From a virus (Duplodnaviria; Caudoviricetes): 61,010 nt of DNA. The position numbers and the translations under genes are program-made. The notes beneath the pieces are model-generated. The model was not told where the DNA came from, searched no databases, and worked only from the letters and a program-made list of their open reading frames with translations. Numbering within the stretch: the stretch's first letter is position 1; each line of letters begins with the position of its first letter. Below, piece after piece: positions 438 through 28,700 of the stretch. Where the stretch lies: IMG/VR virus record IMGVR_UViG_3300042465_004246, positions 1 to 61,010 of that record. One strand, written 5' to 3'.

Positions 438-1397
438 CTACGGTTTCTTTAACTTTGAAATTTGAGACTCAATTGTGTTACGATTCGCTGCATTATTGAA
501 CATACTTGAGTAAGCCTTCATCTCGTCTTGTTTCGCCTGATACTTATCAAATTCCTTGTTGTATTTTTTTTGTGCCTTAAGTTCTTTAAATCCGCTTGCC
601 CCTTGAAAAATAATTCTTCCGCTTTCGTCTTTATCTAATTCGTCTGTTTTACTGTAACCAGTCAGTTTTTGTACAATTTTTGCTCCAATAGGTGTAACCT
701 CATTACGCCTAATTCCAAACATTTTTGCATTGCTTGTGCCAACAGTTACTCCTAAATCCCTTCCCTTGTTATACTTAATTACAGGACGTGAAGCTATAGG
801 AGTAGATGATGTATATTCAGGAGATTTCTCTAACTCACCTTGAATCTCTTGCTTCTCTGTCTTTATTAGTCCTGCTTTTTTAATAGGCATTTTTGAAAGA
901 GTCATATCCTCCTTTGGCTTAGTAACTACAGTAGTTTTTGCTATAGTTTCTTTTGGTGTTACTGCAACAACTTTAGGGGTCACGCTTTTTTTAGTTTTAG
1001 AAGGATCGATTACCTGCTTTGGCTTAACTGGCTTTTTTAAGATTGCACCAGGTCTTCCAGAACCACTTGTCCAGTTTTGAGAGGTGGGATCTGTCATGTT
1101 TGTAAATCGCTCCATGAATTGAGCGTCCGTCTCATACGATCCAACATGCGTTATACTGTCCTTTAATTGGTTAGATGCAAACTTATCCTGTAATGCGTAA
1201 ACCTTTTTTTGATCTGCTGGGTTTAATCTTCTAAGCTTACCAAATCCACCCTCACCAAAATATTTATTTTTATTTGGTAATTCTTTAAACTCTTTGTTTA
1301 ATCTTTCGTATTGAGTAGAGTCAGCCTGATACTTTTTATAATCACTAGGTGGTGGTGTTGTGATAGAAGTCGTTCTACCTGTTTTCATCTTTGCCAT
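438..1397 (-). CDS. Hypothetical basic K/T/P-rich protein (319 aa)
   Basis: Long ORF on the late-arm strand; no motif recognised. Confidence 0.8.
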   Translation of the reverse strand: MAKMKTGRTTSITTPPPSDYKKYQADSTQYERLNKEFKELPNKNKYFGEGGFGKLRRLNPADQKKVYALQDKFASNQLKDSITHVGSYETDAQFMERFTNMTDPTSQNWTSGSGRPGAILKKPVKPKQVIDPSKTKKSVTPKVVAVTPKETIAKTTVVTKPKEDMTLSKMPIKKAGLIKTEKQEIQGELEKSPEYTSSTPIASRPVIKYNKGRDLGVTVGTSNAKMFGIRRNEVTPIGAKIVQKLTGYSKTDELDKDESGRIIFQGASGFKELKAQKKYNKEFDKYQAKQDEMKAYSSMFNNAANRNTIESQISKLKKP

Positions 1398-1525
1398 AAT
1401 ACTGTTATTTTTATTATTAATATGTTAATCTCTAACTGATACTCGTCAAACATTTCGTCTGGTTGGAATAACTCAAACCCTAAATTAATGCCGTACCAAA
1501 ATCTATTTTCAAATAGTATACTCAT
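1385..1525 (-). CDS. Small hypothetical protein (46 aa, MSILFENRFWYGINLGFELF...)
   Basis: Manual translation; lies just downstream of a TATATTTG box at 1530-1537. Confidence 0.55.
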   Translation of the reverse strand: MSILFENRFWYGINLGFELFQPDEMFDEYQLEINILIIKITVLWQR

Positions 1526-1556
1526 GATGCAAATATACTAATTACTTTTAATATGT

Positions 1557-1955
1557 TTATTGTTTCCAAGGATCAAAATTGCTCCAATCTCTTGGGGGGT
1601 TTTGTTTCTTCCATTTTCTGTTCTGGATTTCACCATTTATTATCGCTCCAGCTACGCCTACAACAGCACCTGCATTTGCAGCGATTAGAGCATTATCCGC
1701 AGTCAACCATTTTTTCTTTTCCTTCACAGCCTTCTTTGGCAGCTGCTTAGGATAGATTCGTTTACCCATTTGGTTGGCCCGTAGCAAATCCTTTCCAGTT
1801 TGTGAAGGAGAAACAGTCTTTAATGATAATGGTTTAGCATTAGCCCTAACAGTAACCTCAGGTAGATCCTTAAACATAGTAATTTTAGGCTCTGGAGTTC
1901 TAGATAGCGGTGTGTCACGATGTGTTGTTGTGTTTATTGTTCTTCCGTAGTTCAT
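1557..1955 (-). CDS. Hypothetical basic protein with hydrophobic Ala/Gly segment
   Basis: ORF track; ATGA overlap with the upstream ORF. Confidence 0.75.
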   Translation of the reverse strand: MNYGRTINTTTHRDTPLSRTPEPKITMFKDLPEVTVRANAKPLSLKTVSPSQTGKDLLRANQMGKRIYPKQLPKKAVKEKKKWLTADNALIAANAGAVVGVAGAIINGEIQNRKWKKQNPPRDWSNFDPWKQ

Positions 1956-2194
1956 AACTTTGATTTTAACTTTTCTTTGGGATCTGGGCGAGGTGGCATT
2001 TTTGGGGTAAGTCTTTCAGCTTTTTCTTTAGCAAGTCTTTCAGCTTCACGTTTAGCATCATTCTCTGCTTTGAATTGTTCTGCTGACTTTCCTTTTAAAC
2101 GATCAATGTCCTTATTTTTAAATGGTATAGAATCATAGTTTGGCCGATTCAATCGATCGTCTGTTGTTTTTGTTGTTAAACGGTTATTTCTCAT
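1952..2194 (-). CDS. Hypothetical basic protein (80 aa)
   Basis: ORF follows a TATATTTG box at 2214-2221. Confidence 0.75.
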   Translation of the reverse strand: MRNNRLTTKTTDDRLNRPNYDSIPFKNKDIDRLKGKSAEQFKAENDAKREAERLAKEKAERLTPKMPPRPDPKEKLKSKL

Positions 2195-2213
2195 GGTTTA
2201 TATATTTATATTG

Positions 2214-2221
2214 CAAATATA
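2214..2221 (-). promoter_or_regulatory. -7 promoter box at the head of the leftward arm
   Basis: Reverse complement TATATTTG upstream of ATG 2194. Confidence 0.7.
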
Positions 2222-2739
2222 CTAAATATTTAGAACTTGTGGGTAATATATACGTTTGACGATGAGCTGGCCAAAAGGAAAACGATTTAAAAATCGATGG
2301 GGGGGGTCTGCTTTTCAAACTTTTGGTCGGGGATTTCTAGCTTTTCATAGGCAACCCCCTCACACCCTTGCTACCTATTGGCCGATAGGTCGGCACGTCA
2401 GCTACACGTCACCTCAGCCGACAGAACGACATATTAATCTGCTACCAAATATGCGTGTAGTATAATTTACATTATGTTAAATAGAACGACCAATCGGTCG
2501 GCTGATCGGCTGATCATCTGACCCGAAAATCTGCACGGAAATTTCATCAGCTAGACTTACTGACTAAGGAGGCTAACCCAATCCAACATAAAAAACAACA
2601 AATATTAATAATTTAATGAAAAAAAAATAAACTACTTAACTATCAAACAATCAATACTTTACGAGCATATATTGGTGGGTTTAGATAAAGAAAATGAAAA
2701 AAAATGAAAAAAAATGCAACTTTATTGTAACATTATATA

Positions 2740-2747
2740 TATATTTG
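2740..2747 (+). promoter_or_regulatory. -7 promoter box of the early rightward transcript
   Basis: TATATTTG preceded by A-tracts (2691-2716); first such box before the + strand gene array. Confidence 0.75.
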
Positions 2748-2821
2748 CGTTATAGTATTCAGAGAGGCAAGAGAGCCTTGATTGATTAAAGACTTATTGG
2801 AAAGGTACACGATGCAAAAGA

Positions 2822-2995
2822 GTATATGTAGAGGGTATGAATGTCGTTAGGTTATGGGTAGACATAAATAGATGTTCAGAGAGTGTTACATAAAGGGTGA
2901 TTGCAAGACAAAAACGATAGGGGAGAAAGGTGTTAACGCTTCCGCCAAAACAAAACAAATAACCTACTTGTGAGGGTTCGATTCCCTCTATATAA
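2822..2995 (+). ncRNA. tRNA-like structured RNA with about 100 nt inserted in place of the anticodon loop
   Basis: T-arm GAGGG-TTCGATT-CCCTC (2972-2988); TAGGTTAT (2848-2855) pairs with ATAACCTA (2959-2966); TATATG (2823-2828) pairs with TATATA (2989-2994). Confidence 0.5.
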
Positions 2996-3019
2996 ATGTG
3001 GTGCAAGTAACAACAATAA

Positions 3020-3066
3020 GGTGCAGTTAGAATGACTATTAATAGGAGCGATACCTACTGCACCAC
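3020..3066 (+). ncRNA. Mini tRNA-like element (7-bp acceptor-like stem plus T-arm-like hairpin)
   Basis: GGTGCAG (3020-3026) pairs with CTGCACC (3058-3064), stacked on TAGG-AGCGATA-CCTA (3043-3057). Confidence 0.45.
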
Positions 3067-3089
3067 TAACCAATAAAAACCTAGAAACC

Positions 3090-3200
3090 ATGATTGAAAG
3101 TAAAATCATCAGAATCGAGAACGGCTATGAAATAATCGGCTATTTCTTAAACAAAGTATTAATCAAAACATCCCGAATGAAAGTAAGGGGATGGAAATAA
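3090..3200 (+). CDS. Small early protein (36 aa)
   Basis: Manual translation; starts at the junction motif. Confidence 0.65.
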   Translation: MIESKIIRIENGYEIIGYFLNKVLIKTSRMKVRGWK

Positions 3201-3212
3201 ACAAATAACAAT

Positions 3213-3356
3213 ATGAATGCAACAATCCAATTCACAACTGCATACGGGAAGTATGTTGTTATGACTCGTAATTTTAACGATGAAAATCATATGAATAATT
3301 TTATATCTTATGTAAGTAAGAAGTATAGCTACACCTTTGACGAGGTTTGGTATTAA
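3213..3356 (+). CDS. Small early protein (47 aa)
   Basis: Manual translation MNATIQFTTAYGKYVVM...; A-rich leader. Confidence 0.65.
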   Translation: MNATIQFTTAYGKYVVMTRNFNDENHMNNFISYVSKKYSYTFDEVWY

Positions 3357-3379
3357 CAACAATTTAAACCCTAGAAATT

Positions 3380-3547
3380 ATGAAAACTCACGAAAACAAA
3401 AACAAAACAAAACGCATTTGGTATGATACACGTTTAAGACTTTGGACTCTTCAAGATTTAGATAGTCAAGAAAATCAAATTGGAAACGTGGACTATTCCG
3501 TTGATAGAAAAAATGCTTTTGAATGGCTGAAAGAAGAAAGTAAATAA
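3380..3547 (+). CDS. Small early protein (55 aa)
   Basis: Manual translation MKTHENKNKTKRIWYD...; starts at the junction motif. Confidence 0.7.
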   Translation: MKTHENKNKTKRIWYDTRLRLWTLQDLDSQENQIGNVDYSVDRKNAFEWLKEESK

Positions 3548-3573
3548 ATTAACCAACCTAAACCCTAGAAATT

Positions 3574-3756
3574 ATGAACGATAAAATGTATAATGTATAT
3601 TACATAGACCAATTATATGGTGGTAAAGATGAGTATGAAATTACAACAAGTAATTTTAATCAATGGCTACAAAAAATAAATGCCGATAGAGAGGCAGATG
3701 GAGAAATTCCATACACTGAATGTGAATTTAGATTAGAAGAAATATTAACCAACTAA
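3574..3756 (+). CDS. Small early protein (60 aa)
   Basis: ORF bounded by junction motifs. Confidence 0.8.
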   Translation: MNDKMYNVYYIDQLYGGKDEYEITTSNFNQWLQKINADREADGEIPYTECEFRLEEILTN

Positions 3757-3768
3757 ACCATAGAAAAA

Positions 3769-3963
3769 ATGAACGGAACAATCAGAACAACAACAATCAC
3801 TGAGCAATTAAAACGCAATCAAAACTTTGTCGGCATCAACGATTTTAAACATCCTGTAACACAGGAAATAATACCTGTTGATAGAGACAAGCTAACAGAC
3901 CTATTAAAGTACGAGGAGGGTCACTTGATTCGATTCAAGAAAGAAATGTTTCACAAAGGTTAA
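3769..3963 (+). CDS. Small early protein (64 aa)
   Basis: Starts at the motif; its stop codon lies in hammerhead stem I. Confidence 0.8.
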   Translation: MNGTIRTTTITEQLKRNQNFVGINDFKHPVTQEIIPVDRDKLTDLLKYEEGHLIRFKKEMFHKG

Positions 3964-4013
3964 CTGACGAGTCTTAACTAGACGAAACGGCATCACAAGG
4001 TGCCGTCTTAACC
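3958..4013 (+). ncRNA. Hammerhead ribozyme, type I
   Basis: Stem I GGTTAA/TTAACC; core CTGACGA (3964-3970); stem II GTCT-TAACT-AGAC; GAAA (3984-3987); stem III ACGGCATC-ACAA-GGTGCCGT; GTC cleavage triplet ending at C4007. Confidence 0.93.
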
Positions 4014-4030
4014 AATTAAAACCTTACACA

Positions 4031-4144
4031 ATGGAAAAATTAATGTTTGGCTTGGCTATTTTCTTAGGAGGTGGCCTTGCAATTACTTTGCTATCTACGA
4101 TAGTGATTCTTGTTATTGACGGATTCCCAACTCTATCAATATGA
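4031..4144 (+). CDS. Small single-TM membrane peptide (37 aa)
   Basis: MEKLMFGLAIFLGGGLAITLLSTIVILVIDGFPTLSI; ATGA overlap with the next gene. Confidence 0.7.
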   Translation: MEKLMFGLAIFLGGGLAITLLSTIVILVIDGFPTLSI

Positions 4145-4407
4145 AAGTACTAATCAGCAGTAGCTACGGCTTCGACCACAACTGGACGTTGTGTGTTGAC
4201 GAAAAAGAATTCTACCTTGGGCAAGACGTAAAGTTTTGCTCAAGGGTATTGGGCATGTCTCCATCCTATATCGTACAACAAATAGGAAGCGGTGAACTTG
4301 AAGACCCAAAAATAAACACGAGACTTGCAAAATTTATTGTGAAGTCATTAGGATTAACCAAGAAAAAATTATTAACCATGAACACGTGGGAATTATGTTC
4401 CCAATAA
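4141..4407 (+). CDS. Hypothetical early protein (88 aa)
   Basis: ORF track; stop codon begins a junction motif. Confidence 0.8.
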   Translation: MKVLISSSYGFDHNWTLCVDEKEFYLGQDVKFCSRVLGMSPSYIVQQIGSGELEDPKINTRLAKFIVKSLGLTKKKLLTMNTWELCSQ

Positions 4408-4421
4408 AAACCTTAGAACTT

Positions 4422-4676
4422 ATGTCAAAAGAAAAATTGTATCGAAATAAAAATGGAGAGTATCTATACCTATTCAATTGGATAGGTGGTGGATTCAACG
4501 ATGAGTGGGGACTTAACAAAAGAGAGGCCATTAAAAAAGTAATGAAAGAACGAAGAGAGGGCGAATTAAAATACCCTAGCCACGTGAAATTAAGAATCAA
4601 TTTAAAAACAATGAGGCGTTGTACCTATAGCGAATACCAAGCCCAAAATAGAATGGGATGGATGTTAACAATGTAA
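4422..4676 (+). CDS. Hypothetical early protein (84 aa)
   Basis: Start moved from 4386 to the motif ATG at 4422. Confidence 0.8.
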   Translation: MSKEKLYRNKNGEYLYLFNWIGGGFNDEWGLNKREAIKKVMKERREGELKYPSHVKLRINLKTMRRCTYSEYQAQNRMGWMLTM

Positions 4677-4688
4677 AACCTAGAACTT

Positions 4689-4907
4689 ATGAAAACAATT
4701 ATTTTTATGTGGTACTTAATGACAGGTACTATTGTCCCTCAAAAAGAGGTTGACGGCCGTATGACCTACCGAGTAGAGTTTAATTCTCTTACAGAAATAA
4801 CGGAGGGGAATCAAACCTTTATCGGAACAAATGTAGATTATGCATACAAAGGAGAAATTCTACAATGGATAGAAACAAATGAATTTAAGTATAACGAAGA
4901 ACTTTAA
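4689..4907 (+). CDS. Hypothetical early protein (72 aa)
   Basis: Bounded by junction motifs. Confidence 0.8.
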   Translation: MKTIIFMWYLMTGTIVPQKEVDGRMTYRVEFNSLTEITEGNQTFIGTNVDYAYKGEILQWIETNEFKYNEEL

Positions 4908-4920
4908 AAACCTAGAACTT

Positions 4921-5178
4921 ATGGAAAGATATGCAAGAAAATGTGATGCTACGGGACGTGGTATGAACGAGGGTTATGTTGTTGGTGATGGAGAATTATA
5001 TTTCTCTGAGGAGCAACACGTAATAGATTGGATAAGAAGTCGTGGTGGTACTCACGGCCTATCTAACGAGTACATACTTAACGAAGCGTATAACTTAGAG
5101 GAGTACTACTACACGGAGTGGGAAGAGATTGACGAGGACCTATATTATGACGAGGATGGAAACGAATATGAACTTTAA
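4921..5178 (+). CDS. Acidic early protein (85 aa)
   Basis: Start moved to the motif ATG at 4921; D/E/Y-rich C-terminus. Confidence 0.8.
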   Translation: MERYARKCDATGRGMNEGYVVGDGELYFSEEQHVIDWIRSRGGTHGLSNEYILNEAYNLEEYYYTEWEEIDEDLYYDEDGNEYEL

Positions 5179-5190
5179 AACTTAGAACTT

Positions 5191-5397
5191 ATGAGAACAA
5201 TAAAAATAGGAGACTTCCTAACATTAAACAGAGATGTAATAATAGCTTACGACCATTCTGTAAAGTCTGAAAAAATTAACAAGGGCGACAAGCTAGAAGT
5301 AATATCAATCAGTCCTAACAACAATGAATTTTTAAGATTGAAAAAGGATGGCGTGTCTAACAACATTGGATTAACAACAGATTATTTTAACCTATAA
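5191..5397 (+). CDS. Hypothetical early protein, possibly SH3-like
   Basis: Bounded by motifs; IKIGD...KGDKLEVISI pattern. Confidence 0.75.
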   Translation: MRTIKIGDFLTLNRDVIIAYDHSVKSEKINKGDKLEVISISPNNNEFLRLKKDGVSNNIGLTTDYFNL

Positions 5398-5409
5398 AAC
5401 CTAGAACTT

Positions 5410-5634
5410 ATGAGAGTAATTAGAATCAACACATCAGCTTGGTCAGAAGAGGACTTCTACCTAGTAACAACACTTGACGACCAAGATATCGTTGAGGTAA
5501 TAAACCCACTTGTAAACGCAGAGAGGGACGGATACGAGCAGTACGACAACGATAGCTTGTTACAAGCACTGAAAGACAGATTTCCTTGTGACCATGTGGA
5601 CATGTACACTGAATTTGACAAGCTAACATTTTAG
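5410..5634 (+). CDS. Acidic early protein (74 aa)
   Basis: Bounded by motifs. Confidence 0.8.
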   Translation: MRVIRINTSAWSEEDFYLVTTLDDQDIVEVINPLVNAERDGYEQYDNDSLLQALKDRFPCDHVDMYTEFDKLTF

Positions 5635-5639
5635 AACTT

Positions 5640-5861
5640 ATGAAAATGTATAAACTAATGGAGAGTGATGGAATGGGATATTTCAATACTCACACAGAAT
5701 GGCTAACTTGGGAAGAGGCTGTATCAATGCGTGAAGAACACGTCAAGGATTTCCCCGACTCAGATTGGATTATAGAGGATGATGATTGTGAACCACAACA
5801 AGAAGAACGTTATTACGATGAGAATGCGTGCGATGGATGGGAGGACATCTACCCACTATGA
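5640..5861 (+). CDS. Very acidic early protein (73 aa)
   Basis: 22 D/E versus 5 K/R by my count. Confidence 0.8.
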   Translation: MKMYKLMESDGMGYFNTHTEWLTWEEAVSMREEHVKDFPDSDWIIEDDDCEPQQEERYYDENACDGWEDIYPL

Positions 5862-6034
5862 GAACAACTAGACAAATGACCCTAGACTTTTTAGAAAAGC
5901 AGAGGGACTTAGACGACAGGTCGACATTCCAACTATACCTAATAATAGAGACGATGACCTCGTTGATAGAAGACAAAGACCTACAAGAAATACAAACCAC
6001 ATTTAAAAACCTAAAACCATGTACAGAACAATAG
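5858..6034 (+). CDS. Hypothetical early protein (58 aa)
   Basis: ATGA-coupled start at 5858. Confidence 0.65.
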   Translation: MRTTRQMTLDFLEKQRDLDDRSTFQLYLIIETMTSLIEDKDLQEIQTTFKNLKPCTEQ

Positions 6035-8256: not shown

Positions 8257-8739
8257 ATGTCACACTGGAGAAATTTAATGAAGGACAACAAGTACCTAGG
8301 AAGTTGGGACTTAGAAGTCAACGGGAAGTACGAGCCCACTATCGTAACAATTGAGAAGATATACCAAGACGTAATGTTTGGTGAGATGGGCAAGGAGGAC
8401 AAGGTGTTCATCAAGCTAAAGGAATTTGAGAAGAGCATGGTCTCTAACAGAACGAATTTCAAGAGGTTGGAGACATTCTTCAATTCATTCAACCCTGACG
8501 ACTACACCTCCAAGCAGATAGTATTGTCTGTCGAAAAGGTAAAGAGTCCTCAAGGCATGGTTGACGCACTGAGATTCAGCACACGACCACTACCAAAAAA
8601 GGAGCTACCATCACTACCTGATGAGAAGCTACCCGTAGCTGTTGAGTCTGTGAAGTCTGGTCGTACTACCATCGAGAAGATTCAGAAGCAGTACACACTG
8701 ACGGCTGATCAAATTAAAATGTTTACAAATGAAGATTAG
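8257..8739 (+). CDS. Putative ssDNA-annealing/recombination protein
   Basis: THW/SHW-type N-terminus with YLGSWDL; sits before the exonuclease and SSB. Function inferred from context. Confidence 0.55.
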   Translation: MSHWRNLMKDNKYLGSWDLEVNGKYEPTIVTIEKIYQDVMFGEMGKEDKVFIKLKEFEKSMVSNRTNFKRLETFFNSFNPDDYTSKQIVLSVEKVKSPQGMVDALRFSTRPLPKKELPSLPDEKLPVAVESVKSGRTTIEKIQKQYTLTADQIKMFTNED

Positions 8740-9493
8740 GTCATCATCGTGCTCCCCGTTATTTATGGGGGACGATGGGTTGACTGACATACAGCAAGCC
8801 CAACTTGACGAACTGCTATCAAAGATTAAACTTACTGACGCTCAAGCAATTAAGCGTGACCACCTACAGCAAAAGTCTAACACTATTGAGCTGAGTAGGG
8901 GTGCAAAGACTCTTATCGAGGAGTACATCAATAGGGAGTACTACGGGTACACTGAATCATTTTCAAACCCTAAGACTCAAAAGGGATGGGACGTTGAGCA
9001 GGAGTCTATTGACATATACAATAGGATTTTCTTTACTAACTACCACAAACAAGCTGAGTTTGACAAGTACTACCACATATCTCATGGTATATCGGTTGGT
9101 CATCCTGACATTGTTGATTGTGAGAATAAGAAGATAATCGACATAAAGTCCTCTTGGTCGAAAAAGACTTTTCCCAAGACTATTGAGCAGGCCTACGACC
9201 CAAACTATGAGTGGCAGGTAAAACATTATCTCTATATTATGACTAAGATGACGGGAGATGACTGGAGACATGGCGAGGTAGCATTTATTCTTACCACTAC
9301 TCCTGAGGAGTTAAAGCCTGATTATGAGGACGATAGCCTACACTACATGGAGCACCTAGACGATAACTTGAGGGCCACTGTGTTTAGCGTTGAACTTACA
9401 GATAAAGATATTGTCAAGATGGACAAACGGTTAGCTACTGCCGAGAAGTATGCAATTTTTTATTCTAATTTATTAAAAAACAAAAATGTTTAA
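8729..9493 (+). CDS. YqaJ/lambda-exonuclease-like PD-(D/E)XK nuclease
   Basis: IRSSS, KG...E, GHPDIV...IDIKSSW, YEWQVKHY motifs. Confidence 0.85.
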   Translation: MKIRSSSCSPLFMGDDGLTDIQQAQLDELLSKIKLTDAQAIKRDHLQQKSNTIELSRGAKTLIEEYINREYYGYTESFSNPKTQKGWDVEQESIDIYNRIFFTNYHKQAEFDKYYHISHGISVGHPDIVDCENKKIIDIKSSWSKKTFPKTIEQAYDPNYEWQVKHYLYIMTKMTGDDWRHGEVAFILTTTPEELKPDYEDDSLHYMEHLDDNLRATVFSVELTDKDIVKMDKRLATAEKYAIFYSNLLKNKNV

Positions 9494-18589: not shown

Positions 18590-19727
18590 CAGAGCACTTG
18601 AGCTGTATGATAATACAACTCAAAACATTACCGAGATATCTCGAATAATAAAAAAAGAATTTCCATCAAACGATCAAGAACCAGAAGCCCTAAGGATGCA
18701 AATCTCTAGGCTTATTAAAAAGAGAGGTCTTCGTGATGCATGTGAATCTTTAAACATTGATCAATCAACCGTACCATACATGTGGTTGAAGTCTAAGGAG
18801 GCATCACTGTTTATTAGAAACCCTAACTTTAATGTTACTGAGATAAACTTTGATAAGATTATATCTGAGTGTATGGCAGATCATGTTCCAGTTAAAAAAA
18901 TTAAGGCTCCTAAGTCTTATGACTTTGATAGGGTAATATGGACCGATGTTCACGTTGGTATGGACGCAAGCCGTAAGGGTCTTGCCTTGTATCCAGCAGA
19001 ATGGAATCCTGTTGTGTTAAACAATAGAATTGACGAGATGATTGACTTCATACTAGAGAATAAAACTAGCGATATACTGATCTTAGATGAGCTCGGTGAC
19101 TATATGGATGGTTGGGATGGAGAAACGACACGTAAGGGTCACAAACTACCCCAGAACATGACCAACGAAGAGTCATTCGAGGCTGGTCTAAAAGCAAAGG
19201 TTAGACTAATAGACGAACTATCTAAACACTACAAGCACATAACGTGTAACAACATCTGTGAGGACAATCACGCTGGAGCATTTGGGTACATAGTTAACTC
19301 AGCATTTAAACAAATTGTTGACTTTAAACATTCAAACGTTGAAGTTATCAACCACCAGAAGTTCATAAATTTTTATATCATAGGAGACCATGGATTTATC
19401 ATAAGTCATGGAAAAGATTCTAGAAATTTAAAGTTTGGATTTAAACCACAGCTGGACCCAAGGTCTGCTGAGAAAATATCTCAGTACATCAGACACAACA
19501 ATGACTTGAGGTCTTGTAAGTACATTGAGTTCAGCAAGGGAGACTCACACCAGTGTCTGTTTGACATGTGTACCTCTGATGAGTTTGACTACTTTAATTA
19601 TCCAGCATTCTCACCTAGCTCAGAGTGGGTACAGACAAACTTCAAGAAGGGTAGGTCTGGCTTTGTTGTTCAAAATATCAGTAAGTTTTCAGATAGAAAA
19701 AATATTAAGCCCTACTTTTTTGAGTAG
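18573..19727 (+). CDS. Calcineurin-like metallophosphoesterase with N-terminal HTH-like region
   Basis: TDVHVG, LGDYMDG, DNH, SHG, GDSH motifs. Confidence 0.85.
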   Translation: MNTFHNRALELYDNTTQNITEISRIIKKEFPSNDQEPEALRMQISRLIKKRGLRDACESLNIDQSTVPYMWLKSKEASLFIRNPNFNVTEINFDKIISECMADHVPVKKIKAPKSYDFDRVIWTDVHVGMDASRKGLALYPAEWNPVVLNNRIDEMIDFILENKTSDILILDELGDYMDGWDGETTRKGHKLPQNMTNEESFEAGLKAKVRLIDELSKHYKHITCNNICEDNHAGAFGYIVNSAFKQIVDFKHSNVEVINHQKFINFYIIGDHGFIISHGKDSRNLKFGFKPQLDPRSAEKISQYIRHNNDLRSCKYIEFSKGDSHQCLFDMCTSDEFDYFNYPAFSPSSEWVQTNFKKGRSGFVVQNISKFSDRKNIKPYFFE

Positions 19728-22700
19728 GAGTTAATTATCTGATCAGCTGTTTTTCCAGATTGAATTTTTTGGAGCTCTCTATATGAAACCTCATCAACTA
19801 CTGATGAAAGTTTTACATATTCTTTGCCTTGCTTTTCAGTTAGGCCTCCATGTTCTTCAATCCATTCAATCTCGGAAACTGTTGTCTCTAATTTTGATTT
19901 TGATTTAGTTAGATCCATCTTCCATCCAGTAACTTTAGTGCCAGTCTCTTTCCCAACAGCCTTATATTTTTCATATTGTTTTTCTGTTAAGGAGTTCTTC
20001 TTTGATAACTTTATTATATTATTTGTTACGGTATTTACGTCACGTGGAACTATTCCTAATGCAAACAAAGCTTCAAATATAACGGCATTCTTAATATTAT
20101 CTTGATCTTTTGGTAGCAAATATCTTTCTGACTTATTTCCCATGTAGTCTTGAGTATATTTTCCTGTATACGCTGTGTTCATGTTATCAATTAGTTCCTT
20201 GTATGTGTCATACCCAATACCAATTGTACCATATGACTTTTTTTCATCATTAAACAATTGATACTCACGATCTTGTTTGTATTTTTCAATAAAACTTTGC
20301 TTTTCTTTATCATTCATTTTTTCTTTACCTGAAACTTCAAGCATTAGATTTTTCTTAGACACAGCTTCATCTATCATATCCTGATCTACTGACAATTGAC
20401 TAAGCAATAAGTTTGCACCTCCGACAACAGTATTATCAGCTATTGGTATTGGAGAAAGAAAATCTGTCACTATAGATCTTAACGGATATTTTGTTGCGTT
20501 CTTCATCTCCTTAGATATCTCCACACCCAATAATTTTTCTTTTTCCTCATCGTCATCATCTGCAACTGCTCCAATTATTCCCTTTGCAATAGCAAGGTAT
20601 CCAATACGAATTGATAGACCTATTGATTGATATAACGCCATTTCAAGTGGAAGAGATAATAATGACCTAGCAGCTATTATTTTGTCCTGTTTTGATGCAC
20701 CACTATTAATTCCTAGAACCTTAATATCTGATACCATTCTCGATTTTTGATTTAATGAGAATGATGCAAAAGGCAAGAATAATTTTCTCATAATCTTAGT
20801 TGTAGAATTTTGAGAGTTGAATACCTTACCAGCCATTTTAGCGTCAGATACATTTTGCTGTCTGTCTACCATAAGCATAGCATAGTCTGCCGCATCTTGG
20901 TTTACATTATGTGTAGCCCAATCAATATCTGTTCTTTGATTATTATCTGACAGGTACTGCTTATAGTAAGAAATAAATGAAGACTTAGCGATGAATACAT
21001 CTGGCTTAGATAGGCACCACTTCAACCATATTTGCTGTGCGTCTACAATAAAATTTGAAACTACCCTCGCACCAGAATTTGCTTTGTCTAATCTTCTATC
21101 AATGGACTCAATTGTTGATTGTGATTCTTGACCACGGTTGGATATTGCCATCCCTAATGAATCGATCCACGCATTTGAAGCTGGTGTCAATATATCTATT
21201 CTACTAGAGTTTGCAAATGTACTTAGTGCAATTGGAAATGTTTGCTTTACAATTTGATCTATTCCACCTAGTGCCTTTCCTACACCAATACCACCAAGAA
21301 AATTGGTTAATTGATCAAGGTAGTGCATTGTGTCAGATGGTCCAACTCTTTTATTTTTAGCGGCCTGTATATATTCAGCTATTCTTTTTCTAAATATATC
21401 TCTGTCCTCTTTTGTTGGTATTAACTTGTTAAAGTTTTTTGAGTTTATAAAACCATCTATCCTTCTTATTGCAGCTGCTGTATTCACATCAATAAGTGCT
21501 GCCTTATATGCAGATGAGTTATTAACATCAAAATCTAGGCTAACATATCTATTTGCCTTTGATACTTTTGATGCAGATGGTCTGTTTGATTCCATTAACA
21601 CCCCTGTCTTATTCTTATCTAGAAATTCTATATCCCTACCAAATGCACCAATATTTTTAGGTTCAATTATTTCTTCTAGATTTGCTTTGTCTAGTAATTT
21701 ATATCTGTCTGTACTGTATGAAGTATCACTACTAAGCATCGTATTATAAACAGAAAGACTTATGTCTGATAGGTCATTATATGTAGTCCCCCATTGATTT
21801 ATCCACCAACCAACAGCAGATCTATTAATTTTATCTACGTTAGCACTTATAACATCAATATCTCCAGAATCTACGTTAAGCTTGTCGTATATCTTTTGGT
21901 ATAGTTCACCCATTTTTTGCTCCTTAGTGGATCCTTCTAATAGACTTTTAACGCTTTCTTTTAGTACCTCTACTCTTCTTTTAAGCTCTTCTGCTTGTTG
22001 CATTGCAGTTCCTGATACATTTCTACTTAAGAATGCAAGCATCCCTCTTTCATAAACATTTTCAGAATCGTTAAAACTTTTACCATTTGGCTTTGTCTTT
22101 GCATATTGCTTAAAGTATACATCAACAGTAGTATTAAACATTTTTTCTGCTTTGTTTACTCCATTTATTAATGCAGTCCAGCCCATTTTTTTAGCTACCA
22201 TAAGTCCTTTCTTTGCACCTACAAATAGTTTTTCAAATAGTATTGGCATTGATGCAATTTGTTCAGACATGTATTGCCCTACCTTAGGACTAAAATATTT
22301 TCTAAGTGGACTAGCGACAACCTTGTCATCTATTAAGTTTTCTAGCTCAGTTTCACCTTCCTGTTTTTCTATTACCGCCTCAACAGAGCTTGTTATGTTA
22401 TTGTTTATAAAGTTATCCATTGCCTCAGCAATAAATATTGCCTCTTTAATAGACACATTATTTATATCAATGTTAAGCATTCTAGATATAATGTCAATAT
22501 TTTTCTCAGTTAGAGCTACATCTTCACCAGTCATTGGATTAATCTTATATGTAAGAATGTCTTTCATTATTGCAGACATTGTATCTATACGTCTTGACAA
22601 AAATGTTAGTATATCTGCCTCATAATCAGCATCATCTGCTTCTTCTTTTAGTGAGTTTATAATTAATTCTATATCGCTTAACGACATTTTATCATCTATT

Positions 22701-25700
22701 ACTCCAGCATCAACTAATTCACTGTGCACAGCAAGTAGTTCTTCTTTTAATATTCTTTCTTGATTTTCTATTGCATCATTTGTAAATTCTGATACTGAAT
22801 CAATATTCATTGACTCTCTCATGTTTACATCAAGATCTTTTCTATTTACTCTAGACGGCTTAATTGCATTCTTAACAATTTCTGCCATCTCTAGGTATTT
22901 ATCAATATCATCTACCATTGATGGGTCTATCTTGCTAAACTTCTTAGCCATACCAACCACCTCAGCCTGTATATCTCCCTTAAGTAATTTTCTAATTCCT
23001 TTTCTAAATGAAAAAGCTCTAGACAATCTTTCTTGATAGTCTGCCTTTTCAAATACTCTAGCAGCATAGTCTGCAAGTCTATTAACCATAACTTGGTTGT
23101 CAAGGTTTACTACACTCACTCTATTTATTATTGTTGCTGCTTGCTTTGCAGTTAATCTTCCAAGTTTTACTAGACCCTTTATTGCAGTTGATAGCAACTT
23201 TCTTTTTTGGTTAAGGTCACCCTTAGCCTCCCTAGCAGCTCTTGCTTCAAGTCTAATCTGATCTTTTAGTGCAGTCTTTTCTGTTACTGTTACTGTGCTT
23301 GGCTTAGGTGTTCCCATTATCTTAGCTACAGATGGAGCCTTCTTTAGTTTCTGTTTTTTAGATTGTCTAAAGTCTCTTATTTTTTGCTCTCTGTCTATGT
23401 CGCTTGCATCTTCATACCACTTTGATATTTGTATGTAGTCTATTACATTCTGAATAGCGGTATTCCAAGCTACTCCACGGTCTAATGATTTTTTAAATAT
23501 AGCATCTGCCTCACTGTCCATCCTTGTTTCTTGTGTAGTCTTCTGGAATTTAATGCTTGGCTGAGTAGCGTCAAACGTAGTGTTGGTACCATCTGCAAGT
23601 TTTACTTGGTTTGATTTTAATGTATAATAAACATTTTGTGGATCACCTTCTTCATCATCAAACCAATTATCGTTTATATTATTAAATACAACTCCATCAT
23701 TATTTTTATCATCTAAATTTGATGCTATTTCTCTTGTAGATGAACCATATTTATTTTTTAAGTTATCCCATTTTCTTCCTTTTGCATCAATTATTAATGG
23801 ATTCTTTATATTTAAAAAAGTTTCTAAAACAATTTCTCCAGATGCGTAACCATCTGCGTTCATATAATCATCAGTAAAATATGAACCACCCATAAAAATT
23901 TCAAAATCTTCAGTTGTCCCATGGTAAACAGGCATAGGTTCTCCGTTAGAATCAACGATTTTACTAGCGTTCTGTGGATCGTTCTCCCAGTCACCAAACC
24001 ATTTCTTAAATGCAGGTGTTCTTACCTGCTCCCATTGTACATCATTGAGATTAGACGGCTTACCGTTTGGAGCGGTCTTCTGGAACTTAATATTACTACC
24101 AGACTTATCTAACAATGGCTCATCAGATTTAACTACTTTATTTGTAGCCTCATCATATTTACCATATACAGTAAATCTATCTGAATTTGGAGATGCTTCT
24201 ATTGCATTTTTTGCGTAAACCAAACCACCAACTTGAATAACTTCATCTGCCGAAATAACTGGTGCACCATTTGCTCTATTCCAAAAGAAGCTATGTCTAA
24301 ATGGATTCATACCTACCTGTACCCAGCTTGGATCGTTCATAATTTCTTCAATCATAGCCTGAGCATTTAATCCCTGCTCTTCAGCTGTCTCTCCTGGTAT
24401 GTCTACCATCTCACCTTCCATTCTAGCAAATGTGCCTTTTGAATTAAATCCAGCTGCAATATTTAATGCTACTTTAGGGTCTGTTGTAAACTCAACATTC
24501 TTTAACCTTGCAGCATTTCTATAAGAAATTACATTTCCATTCTTTACTCTTCCATCATGTACAGTTACAATCCATGCATTATGATGCAAGTAAGATGGTA
24601 TGTCAAGTCTAAGTCCAACTCTTTTTATTTTTTTACCAAGTTCATCTACAACTGGAGCCATTAATTTGCTTGCCTTTTTGCCTAGTGCTGTAATCATGTG
24701 CGATAATGTTGATGGTGCAAATAAGGTACCAATTGATCCAATTGGAGAATATTTTTTTACTGCATCCACATATTCCCCTTGATTAATTTTACCCTTAGCT
24801 AAATCAATTGCAACAGATCTAAGGTTATCGCTATTTTTTGCGATTGGACTGTTCATCATACTTTTAACAGGAGTAGCAACCCAATTTTGTGTTAACTGTT
24901 TTTTAATCTTAGAAGGAGATCCCTCTTCGACTGCAAAGCTAGGCAACAGACCAATCTTTTGATCTGCAAACTTCATCTCATCGTACACCTCTCCAACCAT
25001 CTGATTGGCCTGATCTATCTTGCCTTCTTTACGAAGCTGTCTAGCTTTCTCTCTCTTCTTAAATGCAGCGTCATTAACACCACTAAAATTAACCCAGCTA
25101 TTTTGACCTCTTGTTTCAGATGTCATAGCTTTTTTAGCTTCTGGTGAATACATCTCAGAGTGAACTCTCCATGCATTTTCTTCTCCTATTGGTCCAAAAC
25201 TATTACCTAGTTTAGCGTGACCAAAGAAGTCATGTACAAATCTAAAGACATCATTTACTAGCAATGTCTCTCCATTTGCGTCCTTTCTACCAGAGTCTTT
25301 TAATAATATATTTTCTTCTCTTTGTTTGTCAGTAATTGGCTCTTCACCAAATCCAGACTCTGTTGAGAATATCTTCATTCTATTGTTGTCTCTAAGATCA
25401 TTTATCATGTCCTCAGAAGAAGAGTATGGCTCGTTGTTATTTATCTCTAACTTGTATCCCTTTGCTGTTATAGCGTCATATTGATCTAAGGTCTCCTTTG
25501 CCATTGCCTCATAAGCGGCCTTTACTTCAGGGATATTAGGATCATCTTTCATCTTATCGTAAGCGTCAGATATTCTTTTAGATAGGCCTTCGTCTAGCTT
25601 TGTTATCTTTTCAACAGGTGTGTATTCCATTCCTATTGACTTCATGTACGACTTTGCTATGTCAAGTGCCTGTTTTAATGGCTCGTTAAATAGCTTGTTA

Positions 25701-28700
25701 CCAGCTACTGGTGCTGTAAGTTTATCGGTCTTATTTTTTCGGAATTTTATTTTTGATGATTCTTTAAACTCCGCTACTTTTGGTATAGCTCCTGCACTAG
25801 ATGAAACATTTTTTTGTTCAAATTTAGGCTCTTCTGATTTTCTTGATACCTCTTCACCACCTTTATTATACTTTGTGTATGTCTCAGTAATATCACTTGA
25901 TTTATATAGTTCTGTCGGTTGATAAATACCATTTATTTTTGCTAAAAGAGTCCATCCAAATGACGGATGATTATCTATATCACTTTCTTTTGTTTGAACT
26001 ATTTTAAAAGTATTAGGATCAAACTTAACAATATTCATAATCTCACCACCAGTCATTCCTTGATTTAATGGATCCATTATTCTATTGTAGAACTCTTGTT
26101 TGTTTTTTATTCCAATTGCTTTTTGAAATTCTTTATTTGCAGATATTGCATTGTTTAAAGCCTTTCTTAAGTTAGGAGAATAATTATTCTTTATATCTAA
26201 TAGCTCAATAATTTTTTTAGGATCTGACTTAAATGAATCAAAGTTTTTAATATTTTCTCCATATTTTTCTGCAAATTGATTAAACTCTTTTTGATTTGAT
26301 TTATTAGTTTTTATTGCATCATTAAATACATCTATTAATTTATCTTTAGTAAGTATTTCATTATCTAATACTAAAGAAGATAATTCAGCAAAGGTATGTT
26401 GTTGAAACTGCCAAGAGTTACTTAATGTTCCAGAATGAGGTGCAAATATTTTAGCTCCACTCATTTCAGCATTTCTAACAAAAGTTTCAGCTTGTGCTTT
26501 TGTATTAAATGCTGCAAGGTTTGATACTTCACCAATTTTTTTATTATTTAATGACATCATTAATGGAACATAATTTTTTCCTCCTAACATGTTTATTTCA
26601 AATCCATTACCTAAATCAGTTTTACCTGCGTTTGTAAAATCATACATATTAGTAATAAACTTTTCACCATTAAGTTCTCGTATATCTAAGTCTTCAACAA
26701 ACTCTATAATAAAATCCCTTGAATCTTCAGATACACTTTTTGCTTTTTTAAATTTTACTTTAGGGATATTAAATGTTCCAACTTCACCACCGTCTCCTGG
26801 ATCATTTATCTCAATCTCATCCCCAGTCCTAAGTTTCTTAGACATGGTATTAATAAAGTCAGCAGCGTCTTGTGCAGTTGCTGATGCAGAAAATATAACT
26901 GGCAAACCTAGCTTCTTAGCGATATTATTTATCAATGTTTTGAATTGCTGTAGCTTTGTTGTAGTTAATTCTTGCTCTGCCTCAGATAGTATTCCACCAA
27001 GCTCTGATATGTATTCTTCTGCCTTTTCATCTTCATTGTATTGAGATACAAAATCATCTAATCTTTGTTTAATACCTTTGTCAGATATAATATTTTTAAG
27101 GCCCTTTGCCATCAATAATATTGACCCAGACTTCATTCCGTTTTTTTCAATCAACGCATGAAATGCTTCATGATACACCGTACCAATAGTTGCAGATTCT
27201 AGGTTAATATGAATATCACCGTCTACATATAGACCGCTTGATTCTGTAAGCCCAGTCTTTTCTTCTTTTGTTAATTGTTTCTTTGATGCCTCAATAGCAC
27301 TAGCCATTTCTTGGCCATTGTTGTGCATGTATATCTTAACTCCAGGGATCGCATTTAAAACCATTTTAGCGGCTTTCACAATCAACTTATTTTTAGGCGT
27401 AGTTTGTTTTGATGCAAACTCCCTGACATTTTCTTTTGTCAGTAAGTTGTTTGTTGTCTCAGTTGTAGCTCCAAATACATTGGGCATTCTTCCTTCCTTT
27501 AAGGCTTTAGAGATTTCTCTGTGCTGCTCTGGAGTAAAACTCATAGGGTTCTCACCAGTTGCTCCAGTCTTAATATTTTCAAATGTTGCTAGATCAAATA
27601 ATGATTCCTGACCAGCAAGTCTTGCAAATTCAAGTGCTTGTTCTCTTGATGTTTCAGGAACTACTACACTAAGGTCAATTGATACTTGATTGCTATTAGG
27701 AAACTTATATATTCCAGCCTTAACGACACCAGCATCACCTATCATTTTTTGACGCTCTGCAACAAAGTCGGCAACCATTTCTGGAGTCAATTCTTCTGTT
27801 GTAGTGTTCATGCTATCAACTGGAACAACTAAACCAACACCCTCATACTTAGTACCATCAATATTGAATGTAGCACCGTCTTCAGACTCAGGTGTAAGAG
27901 ATTTAACTCTATCTACCTCAGCTGTTGTATTGGTTGTTATAACAGGCTTATCGATTACTACTTCACCTGTAGGCTCTAATAGAGGGCTTATTAAGTTGTC
28001 ATACTTATTGTATATACTATTATACTTAGCCAATACAGTTTTTGGCATGATAGTTTTATCTATCTTACCATTTACTTTGTATTTTTCTATTTTAGGTATG
28101 GCCTTAAGAAGTTCAGCCTGTTCTTGTTCTCTGTAGGCTGCTACTTGCTCTTCTTGCTGTATTTTGCTTGCGACAGTGCTATCGCTACGATCTGCTTCAT
28201 TGACCGTGGTTTCCCGTTGTCCCCCTTCGCTGACCCCGACTTCTGGTTGTCCTTCACCAGTTCCCTGATATTCGCTGATACCGCCTTCTGCTGTACCTTC
28301 TTGTTGCTTGATGTTGTCTTCTTTAGTGGCATTTTCTGATGTTGTTTTTAGTGCTTCGTTTATTTCTTTTATTCTATTTGTTTCTTTTACTACTAGATTA
28401 GGTTCTTTATCTTTTATTTCGTTTTGTATTATTTCTCTTTCTTGTAGTAAAGAAAAAGCTTCTCTTTGAGACTGTGTAGTTAATGAAGCTGGTATTTTTG
28501 TTAAGACAGAATATGATTTATTCAATTCGTCTATCTTCTTGTTCATTTCTTCAGACGAAATTTTTCCATTCTTTTCATCCTCCTTTATACTAGCTATCCA
28601 TCCATTTCTTGATTCAGTATTTAAAACAAAATTTTTATATATATCAAACTTATTGTTTGATGATATATCTACAATATTATCTTTTACTGAAGCACCAGCA

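Follow-up and report, generated by a model that had tools for sequence, protein, structure and literature searches.

Hammerhead ribozymes clustered around genes in prophages were described by Perreault et al. in 2011, with in vitro cleavage of native polycistronic fragments observed for three clusters, and the part of that paper drawn on here proposes that such elements process long transcripts into single-gene or operon-length messenger RNAs (mRNAs) (PMC3088659). The role of bacterial and phage hammerheads has been debated since their discovery in 2011, and a 2019 review, in the portion consulted, still called their function unresolved. The present report concerns an element of this kind in the virus record IMGVR_UViG_3300042465_004246, the whole of which is referred to here as the window (61,010 bp, 35.9% G+C). 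The element is a complete type I hammerhead at positions 3958–4013 of the plus strand, lying between two small genes. It is conserved in related phages, its stems covary, its position relative to neighboring genes is stereotyped, and it is best read as a putative self-cleaving separator within a polycistronic phage mRNA.

The resemblance to the prophage clusters is in the arrangement, as both involve hammerheads between genes of long phage transcripts, often several per region, with inconstant flanking genes. In contrast, the clusters described by Perreault et al., so far as the part of the paper used here extends, are a mixture of types I, II, and III in prophages of Clostridium, Azorhizobium, and Agrobacterium (PMC3088659). 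The elements described below form a uniformly type I subfamily with a stem I of 6 base pairs (bp) capped by an A on either side, a stop codon inside the ribozyme, and 19–27 nucleotides (nt) to the ATG, and they come from contigs of lytic-type freshwater phages that are relatives of Flavobacterium phages. Haloviruses HF1 and HF2 provide a second precedent, with a hammerhead upstream of an early helicase gene and a mapped 5′ end within 3 nt of the cut. As in the window, a lytic virus carries the element in its early region, just before a start codon and at the head of a polycistronic transcript, but the host is archaeal, the core is a variant, the element is not wedged between closely spaced genes, and the sections used describe no shared leader (PMC3088659). 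More recently, a 2026 paper placed type I hammerheads in 5′ untranslated and intergenic regions of fungal RNA viruses, just upstream of open reading frames (ORFs). These elements likewise have a long stem III, lie a few nt before an ORF start, and generate the 5′ end of a translated RNA; in the portion of the paper available, they differ in having RNA genomes, eukaryotic hosts, a proposed role in cap-independent translation, and a cut 7 nt from the start codon (PMC13725137).

Among the Rfam families, RAGATH-1 (RF03152) resembles the window element in its type I arrangement and in having a stem I that is short and A/U-rich. It differs in that its stem II is a single pair and a further hairpin lies upstream, whereas the window element has a 4-bp stem II and an unconvincing upstream hairpin. 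Two further systems offer functional parallels. Synthetic insulators of the RiboJ type, which were engineered from a type III satellite-RNA hammerhead plus an added hairpin, place a self-cleaving ribozyme before a gene to give a defined 5′ end independent of upstream sequence; the window element is natural and would leave merely 6 nt on the gene. In mitochondrial transfer RNA (tRNA) punctuation, polycistronic transcripts are cut at true tRNAs by RNase P and RNase Z. Here, too, a structured RNA between genes marks the cuts, and a mini tRNA-like fold occupies an equivalent junction in the window, but the hammerhead is predicted to cut itself and the tRNA-like fold is only a candidate. With supplementary alignments outside the scope of the literature search, no report was found of hammerheads in Flavobacterium or Cellulophaga phages, nor any description of this subfamily or of its layout of stop codon, ribozyme, leader, and start codon.

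The plus strand at 3958–4013 reads GGUUAA-CUGACGA-GUCU(UAACU)AGAC-GAA-ACGGCAUC(ACAA)GGUGCCGU-C-UUAACC. Direct reading, a motif script, the minimum free energy (MFE) fold, and a covariance model (R1) agree on an intact type I hammerhead with all core bases and three stems, as a preliminary description made from the sequence had claimed. Stem I, read from the sequence, pairs G3958–A3963 with U4008–C4013 over 6 bp, and its 5′ strand (GGUUAA, 3958–3963) is GGTTAA in 50 of 54 family members. It is followed by the core segment C3–A9 (CUGACGA, 3964–3970), which is invariant save for N7 in alignment A1 (19 sequences, MAFFT). Stem II (3971–3983; GUCU/AGAC, 3971–3974 with 3980–3983) has 4 bp, supported by sequence and covariation, and a UAACU loop. 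The second core segment (G12, A13, A14; GAA, 3984–3986) is invariant in the same alignment, and stem III (3987–4006; 3987–3994 with 3999–4006), identified from sequence and fold, comprises 8 bp, including one U-G, and an ACAA loop. C17 of the GUC triplet is C4007, so that the cleavage site proposed earlier, between 4007 and 4008 (GUC^U), is the one expected from the sequence. The pair G10.1-C11.1 that closes the core corresponds to G3971-C3983, and A15.1-U16.1 at the base of stem III corresponds to A3987-U4006. Since loops close stems II and III while stem I is open and holds both the 5′ and 3′ ends, the topology is type I.

Folded alone, the 56 nt adopt precisely this three-way junction as their MFE structure (−17.9 kcal/mol, z −3.36), and only one of 200 shuffles folded as well; stems II and III are retained in a 201-nt folding context. 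Stem I is weak and A/U-rich. An unpaired A directly 5′ of it (A3957, plus strand) and A4014 limit it to exactly 6 bp, and A3957 may serve as a docking site for loop II, which follows the pattern U-NNN-U/G across the type I hammerheads compared; a contact between stem I and loop II would be suggested by these features. Separately, GUCUUAAC is present twice on the plus strand, at 3971–3978 and 4005–4012, and loop II could therefore pair transiently with the 5′ strand of stem I as an alternative to the true stem. This alternative is probably not conserved, since loop II differs in most relatives. A terminator was also considered for this site and ruled out, since stem III is followed by CUUAACC, with no run of U, and a terminator scan lists none there.

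The motif is not a chance occurrence. A script requiring the core and three stems returned a single match when both strands of the window were scanned. In 300 dinucleotide shuffles of the whole window, a strict version (stems of at least 6, 4, and 6 bp) gave no matches, and a loose version (at least 4, 3, and 3 bp) gave eight, or 0.027 per genome. Model R1 scored 82 bits (E 1e-15) at the element, its only significant match in the window. Against deposited phages, a DNA search with positions 3000–6000 gave no match, and a search with an 84-nt segment carrying the element gave six weak partial matches (E 3–9) that are not homologues.

Similar hammerheads occur in other viral contigs. A pattern scan with the core and the stem II of the window, leaving stems I and III free, identified at least 120 loci. 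The matches listed number 125, consisting of 114 complete type I, five type III, and six incomplete elements, and include 91 unique type I sequences. Stem I is exactly 6 bp long in 71 of these 91, and 68 of those 71 listed cases carry an unpaired A on both flanks. Of 120 loci listed, 26 showed translated similarity to the window; the 12 with strong or multiple matches were taken as relatives, and the other 14 were set aside at that step. Eleven of the 12 listed relatives share stem I GGUUAA/UUAACC, with stem III ranging from 5 to 14 bp and quite different in sequence. By eye, many stem III loops resemble RNA tetraloops (UACG, GUGA, GCAA).

Conservation at the same junction was established independently of the ribozyme by retrieving loci through the exonuclease protein encoded at 8729–9493, which yielded 11 close loci at 95–100% identity. 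Six of these extend 4.1–4.8 kb upstream of the exonuclease gene, which matches the spacing between gene and element in the window, and R1 matched all six at the same place; the remaining five, with 2.2 kb or less upstream, are too short to judge. In the close relatives, the ribozyme precedes the same 37-amino-acid (aa) peptide gene, and two of the six carry a second hammerhead copy. At this one junction, stem II occurs as GUCU/AGAC, GACU/AGUC, or GGAU/AUCC with an unchanged core, and stem III shows compensatory variants GGC/GCC and AGC/GCU. Three close relatives also have elements with an extra U between A9 and G10.1 (L131:5563-5636, L134:5868-5941, and L128:5431-5503).

Covariation was quantified in two alignments. 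A1 holds the window and 18 of 22 unique hammerheads of the GGUUAA type, the four left out being one duplicate of the window sequence and three whose stem III is very long. All 275 of its cells pair, and 27 carry double changes, compared with 8.6 in shuffles and with none of 500 shuffles reaching 27; three variable pairs of stem III show 4–5 pair types each. A6 comprises 54 hammerheads collected with R1 from 26 sources and, being fitted to the model, has pair counts that lean towards the structure. In this set, 99.9% of 806 cells pair, 13 of 15 pairs have double changes, and double-change cells number 147 versus 38.5 in shuffles (0 of 500 reach 147), while sliding the partners by 1–3 columns lowers pairing to 25–41%. 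Among these 54 relatives, double changes affect three of the four pairs of stem II and four of the five counted pairs of stem III. The pairs flanking the core hardly vary (G10.1-C11.1 in 53 of 54, A15.1-U16.1 in all 54), and position 17 is C in 43 and A in 11 but never G. Stem I is nearly invariant, with rare compensatory variants GAUUAA/UUAAUC and AAACCU/AGGUUU.

A hammerhead-like element is also found in a cultured phage, Flavobacterium phage vB_FspP_elemoE_10-3D, on the minus strand of MT497078.1 at 27087–27160 (L140:1501-1574; R1 score 35.5 bits). Its core, stem I, and stem III are intact, two of its four stem II pairs are mismatched, and it lies 28 nt before a gene start, beneath an opposite-strand 35-aa coding sequence that is probably a false call. 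Type I hammerheads of similar build were noticed in two unrelated contigs: one on the plus strand of L029 (~527–600) within a tRNA gene array, with tRNAs on both sides, and one in L021 (~2798–2826) adjoining a permuted transfer-messenger RNA (tmRNA) gene.

The placement of the element is as regular as its structure. In the window, the upstream gene (3769..3963, plus strand; 64 aa, no family match, with a 55% identical homologue in contig L123) ends with the TAA at 3961–3963, inside stem I. The downstream gene (4031..4144, plus strand) encodes a hydrophobic 37-aa peptide, found as two sequence variants of equal length in close relatives. The 23 nt between the predicted cut and its ATG (4008..4030, plus strand) form a leader that opens with UUAACC, the 6-nt 3′ strand of stem I. 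The preliminary description had both the stop codon within stem I and the 23-nt spacing right. Across the 54 hammerheads, the distance from cut to next ORF start is 19–27 nt in 51, and two have no ORF start in range. The ribozyme itself provides the upstream stop in 32, as the TAA of stem I GGUUAA in 18 and the UGA of the CUGA core in 14, and the stop abuts stem I in 11 more (43 of 54 in all). Of the 91 unique phage type I hammerheads among the matches listed, 54 have an ORF start 15–40 nt past the cut, compared with 14.9% of 2280 random positions in the same loci. The hammerheads lie on the coding strand of the neighboring genes in all cases. Copies per locus number 1–5, always on one strand and varying even among close strains, and the genes downstream of them are unrelated to one another.

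The leader is not confined to the hammerhead. In the relatives, it has the form YUAACCAA(W)(W)AAA..., beginning with the 3′ strand of stem I and extending to the start codon, and in 53 of 54 it is found after the ribozyme, its initial 6 nt being base-paired within stem I. Scanning with a weight matrix derived from these leaders located the motif upstream of four consecutive genes of the window, 23–25 nt before the ATG, and matches followed by an ORF start number five in the window versus 0.18 in shuffles. Only the copy at 4008, before the gene at 4031, is joined to a hammerhead. The others, all on the plus strand, are at 3066..3089 (CUAACCAAUAAAAACC..., 24 nt before the ATG at 3090 and preceded by the mini tRNA-like fold), 3549..3573 (25 nt before the ATG at 3574), and 3745..3768 (24 nt before the ATG at 3769). 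Weaker matches were seen at 4354 and 12657. The near-invariance of stem I is thus explained by its 3′ strand being the start of a leader that also precedes neighboring genes free of any ribozyme, and it seems that the ribozyme was built against a pre-existing gene-start module. The leader itself may act as a signal for translation, as a promoter, or as a site of recombination.

Gene content around these leaders is modular. Single-gene cassettes are present or absent between close strains, and at least one break point falls in the repeated leader. For example, contig L136 is ~95% identical to the window around 2394–3093, and its positions 698–947, compared with window positions 3067–3093, hold an extra 66-aa gene followed by a hammerhead, between two leader copies. 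As a result, the gene starting at 3090, which is ribozyme-free in the window, has a hammerhead before it in L136. Contigs from RNA libraries of related strains likewise skip single genes (3562 to 3769, 4674 to 4907, 5175 to 5395, and 5635 to 5870).

Taken from these sequence data, the most probable explanation, at a probability of roughly 0.8, is that the element is a functional cis-cleaving type I hammerhead acting as a separator inside polycistronic phage mRNA. Once RNA polymerase has passed ~4013, the 56-nt three-way junction would fold, and the 2′-OH of C4007 would attack the phosphate linking C4007 to U4008. The upstream RNA would keep its stop codon and the ribozyme as a 44-nt 3′ tail with a stable stem III hairpin and a 2′,3′-cyclic phosphate. 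The downstream RNA, held by the weak stem I alone, would be released with a 5′-OH and a defined, unstructured, A-rich 23-nt leader before the 37-aa peptide gene. In this manner, the downstream gene would gain a leader starting YUAACCAA..., as on neighboring genes, and the fate (stability and translation) of the genes on either side could be uncoupled; these consequences are taken from general proposals in the parts of PMC3088659 and PMC6765202 used here. A type I hammerhead leaves merely 6 nt of ribozyme on the downstream RNA. It is the one topology that leaves almost no ribozyme there, which fits the dominance of type I among the matches listed (114 of 125).

Several observations weigh against this reading. 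The self-processing of the polycistron put forward in the preliminary description is the best-supported account, given the conservation, covariation, and stereotyped intergenic position of the element, but self-cleavage is a prediction, and we infer both cleavage in vivo and its effect on expression. Stem I is marginal in the 201-nt folding context, with four of its six pairs in the centroid and a different partner in the MFE structure. A tertiary contact between stem I and loop II was not demonstrable, with no pseudoknot or internal loop found, and activity at physiological Mg2+ is therefore assumed. The counts of paired cells in A6 are, as noted, biased towards the structure by the fitting. 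An R1 scan of the more distant relative MW202828.1 gave no match at E ≤ 0.1, from which the element appears dispensable for this type of phage. The same leader stands before three neighboring genes without any ribozyme, and so cleavage is not needed for the leader to exist. The Rfam hammerhead search suggested in the preliminary description also failed to support it: at gathering thresholds, the whole window gave no matches and no hammerhead family reached its score. In E-value mode, the best was RAGATH-1-hammerhead RF03152 (28.5 bits versus a gathering score of 56.3; E 0.0036), and Hammerhead_3 scored 16.5 bits versus 48.5. Further Rfam hammerhead families, such as Hammerhead_1, Hammerhead_II, HH9, and HH10, likewise gave no match in the window at gathering thresholds. 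Hammerheads in 15 related or unrelated loci also gave none at an Rfam hammerhead threshold. By its defining features, the element is a hammerhead, and standard annotation would not flag it.

RNA-library contigs bear on the same question. Parts of the region are present in 14 RNA runs, of which four (X1–X4, labeled freshwater metagenome) were compared with the window as contigs, which cannot show RNA ends. Also weighing against cleavage is record 6 of X2, which spans the predicted cut (3769–4108); therefore uncut RNA, or DNA carried into the library, exists. In X1, X3, and X4, none of the listed contigs covers the ribozyme: upstream contigs end at 3959 (X3) and ~3968 (X4), and downstream contigs begin at ~4018 (X1), 4023 (X4), and 4038 (X3). 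This gap could reflect cleavage, initiation of a transcript in the leader, or interrupted assembly owing to strain differences in stems II and III.

Of the rival explanations, one refines the separator rather than replacing it. Because the overlap between stop codon and ribozyme is family-wide, a terminating ribosome must unfold the ribozyme; if stem I and the core were opened in this way, the cut would be made only when the upstream gene is untranslated, and processing would be coupled to translation. The stop at 3961–3963, its counterparts inside the ribozyme in 32 of 54, and the 11 that abut stem I all suit such a mechanism, which we nevertheless regard as rather unlikely. The genes of a compact phage genome should be tightly packed whether or not this has regulatory meaning, so the overlap could equally be simple genome compaction, and the stop occurs at four or more different positions relative to the ribozyme. 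A different view holds that ribozyme and leader mainly mark cassette boundaries, that is, portable recombination sites for the gain and loss of single genes, with RNA cleavage secondary; in multi-copy genomes, 5′-OH ends might even re-pair with any ribozyme, leading to religation or circularisation. Copy numbers of 1–5 per locus even among close strains, the extra cassette of L136, RNA-library contigs that join across single genes, the mutually unrelated downstream genes, and the contrast between freely varying stems II and III and a stem I that reads GGUUAA in 50 of 54 are all consistent with it. However, recombination does not require an intact catalytic core, whereas the core here is invariant and the stems covary, and the single copy in the window makes circularisation inapplicable here. 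In addition, spliced or circular products of clustered hammerheads were sought by Perreault et al. in 2011 and, within the part of the paper used, none was found (PMC3088659). As the main function, a cassette boundary is therefore considered distinctly unlikely.

The leader could alternatively be a phage or host promoter that gives each small gene its own start, in which case the hammerhead would merely trim read-through. Its occurrence at a fixed distance before four consecutive genes, with five matches followed by an ORF start versus 0.18, would be expected of a promoter. On the other hand, the motif is unlike the sigma-70 type sites scanned for, promoter-like sites between 1300 and 5300 show no excess (13 versus 15.9 in shuffles), and the position of the motif after the ribozyme in 53 of 54, with its first 6 nt in stem I, points to a role at the RNA level, so that a promoter is improbable. 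Least credible is a chance match or an inactive relic without present function. The failure to reach any Rfam threshold and the lack of an R1 match in one more distant relative would suit this explanation, but it is nearly incompatible with the absence of strict matches in 300 shuffles and with the presence of the element at the same junction in all six close relatives that are informative, where two stems have changed in a compensatory manner and the core has not. A functional separator thus remains the preferred reading.

The preliminary description further held that the hammerhead, together with two tRNA-like folds, belongs to an RNA-level processing programme. Two candidate folds are indeed present, but no tRNA was identified: ARAGORN at default settings reported neither a tRNA nor a tmRNA in the window, and Rfam gave no tRNA at gathering thresholds in the window and nothing at E ≤ 0.1 in E-value mode for 1300–3300. 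One candidate is a T-arm, GAGGG-UUCGAUU-CCCUC, at 2971–2987 (plus strand), which shows a compensatory G-C to U-A change in relatives. Lowering the ARAGORN threshold to 80% produced a permuted tmRNA call at 2733–2996 (plus strand), and RNA-library contigs over the T-arm region span 2771–2990 (X1) and 2698–2982 (X2). The other candidate is a mini tRNA-like fold at 3021–3065 (plus strand). Its acceptor-like stem (GGUGCAG/CUGCACC) measures 7 bp and is accompanied by a 4-bp hairpin and by a hairpin resembling a T-arm (UAGG/CCUA, 7-nt loop), which stacks on the 3′ strand of the acceptor. The fold is followed by an unpaired A (A3065) and then by the hammerhead-type leader motif. In six sequences, all 88 cells of this fold pair, with one compensatory G-C to U-A change (three sequences) and one G-C to G-U change. 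A covariance model of the fold (R2) matched strongly only its six training sequences, so that the fold is not shown to be widespread; the remaining R2 matches (20–23 bits) are mostly hammerhead 3′ halves plus leader. An RNA-level processing programme is accordingly plausible, though thinly supported.

A broader scheme can be drawn from these elements, and it is put forward as an unlikely one. The early region would be a string of single-gene cassettes that share one universal 23–25-nt leader (YUAACCAA...) and are separated by at least two interchangeable punctuation devices, namely a self-cutting hammerhead and a mini tRNA-like fold processed by the tRNA maturation enzymes of the host, and the shared stem I would let released 5′-OH ends re-pair with any ribozyme. 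If this were true, religation, circular single-gene mRNAs, or reshuffling at the RNA level would be permitted in multi-copy genomes.

The genomic setting is that of a phage with a probable Bacteroidota-type host. The element lies in a plus-strand block of ~2.7–19.7 kb that opens with many small ORFs without family matches and further along encodes an exonuclease, a primase/helicase-like protein, and a helicase; the term “early region” is a reasonable reading of this gene order and no more. The nearest named relative of the 774-aa replication protein is in the uncultured podovirus MW202828.1 (50.5% identity over 98%), followed by Flavobacterium phages of the genus Elemovirus (38% over 40%) and then by other Flavobacteriia phages. 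Shine-Dalgarno-like 4-mers precede four of 76 ORFs and occur in 9% of random 16-mers, and are thus rarer than random. This scarcity and the Flavobacteriia-phage relatives both point to the host assignment. Elsewhere in the window, a 3800-aa ORF on the minus strand (19712–31114) contains the ADP-ribosyltransferase domain of polyvalent proteins (PF18760) at residues 2388–2514 (E 1.6e-15) and no other Pfam family above the cut-off. A provisional identification of this ORF as an N4-type virion RNA polymerase, and of the phage as “N4-like”, was dropped, since Pfam gives only the ART-PolyVal domain.

Phage hammerheads were already known, and the addition of one more from the window is by itself unsurprising. 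The parts worth following are the coupling of the ribozyme to the leader and its possible tRNA-like counterpart. In practical terms, Rfam thresholds miss this subfamily, and a hammerhead-like element in a deposited Flavobacterium phage lies under a probably spurious gene call. For the long debate on the role of such ribozymes, the family offers clean natural comparisons, as the same junction occurs with and without a ribozyme in closely related strains. The fixed geometry of stop codon, ribozyme, 23-nt leader, and start codon, together with the occurrence of the leader at ribozyme-free junctions, makes the idea of an “mRNA separator” directly testable.

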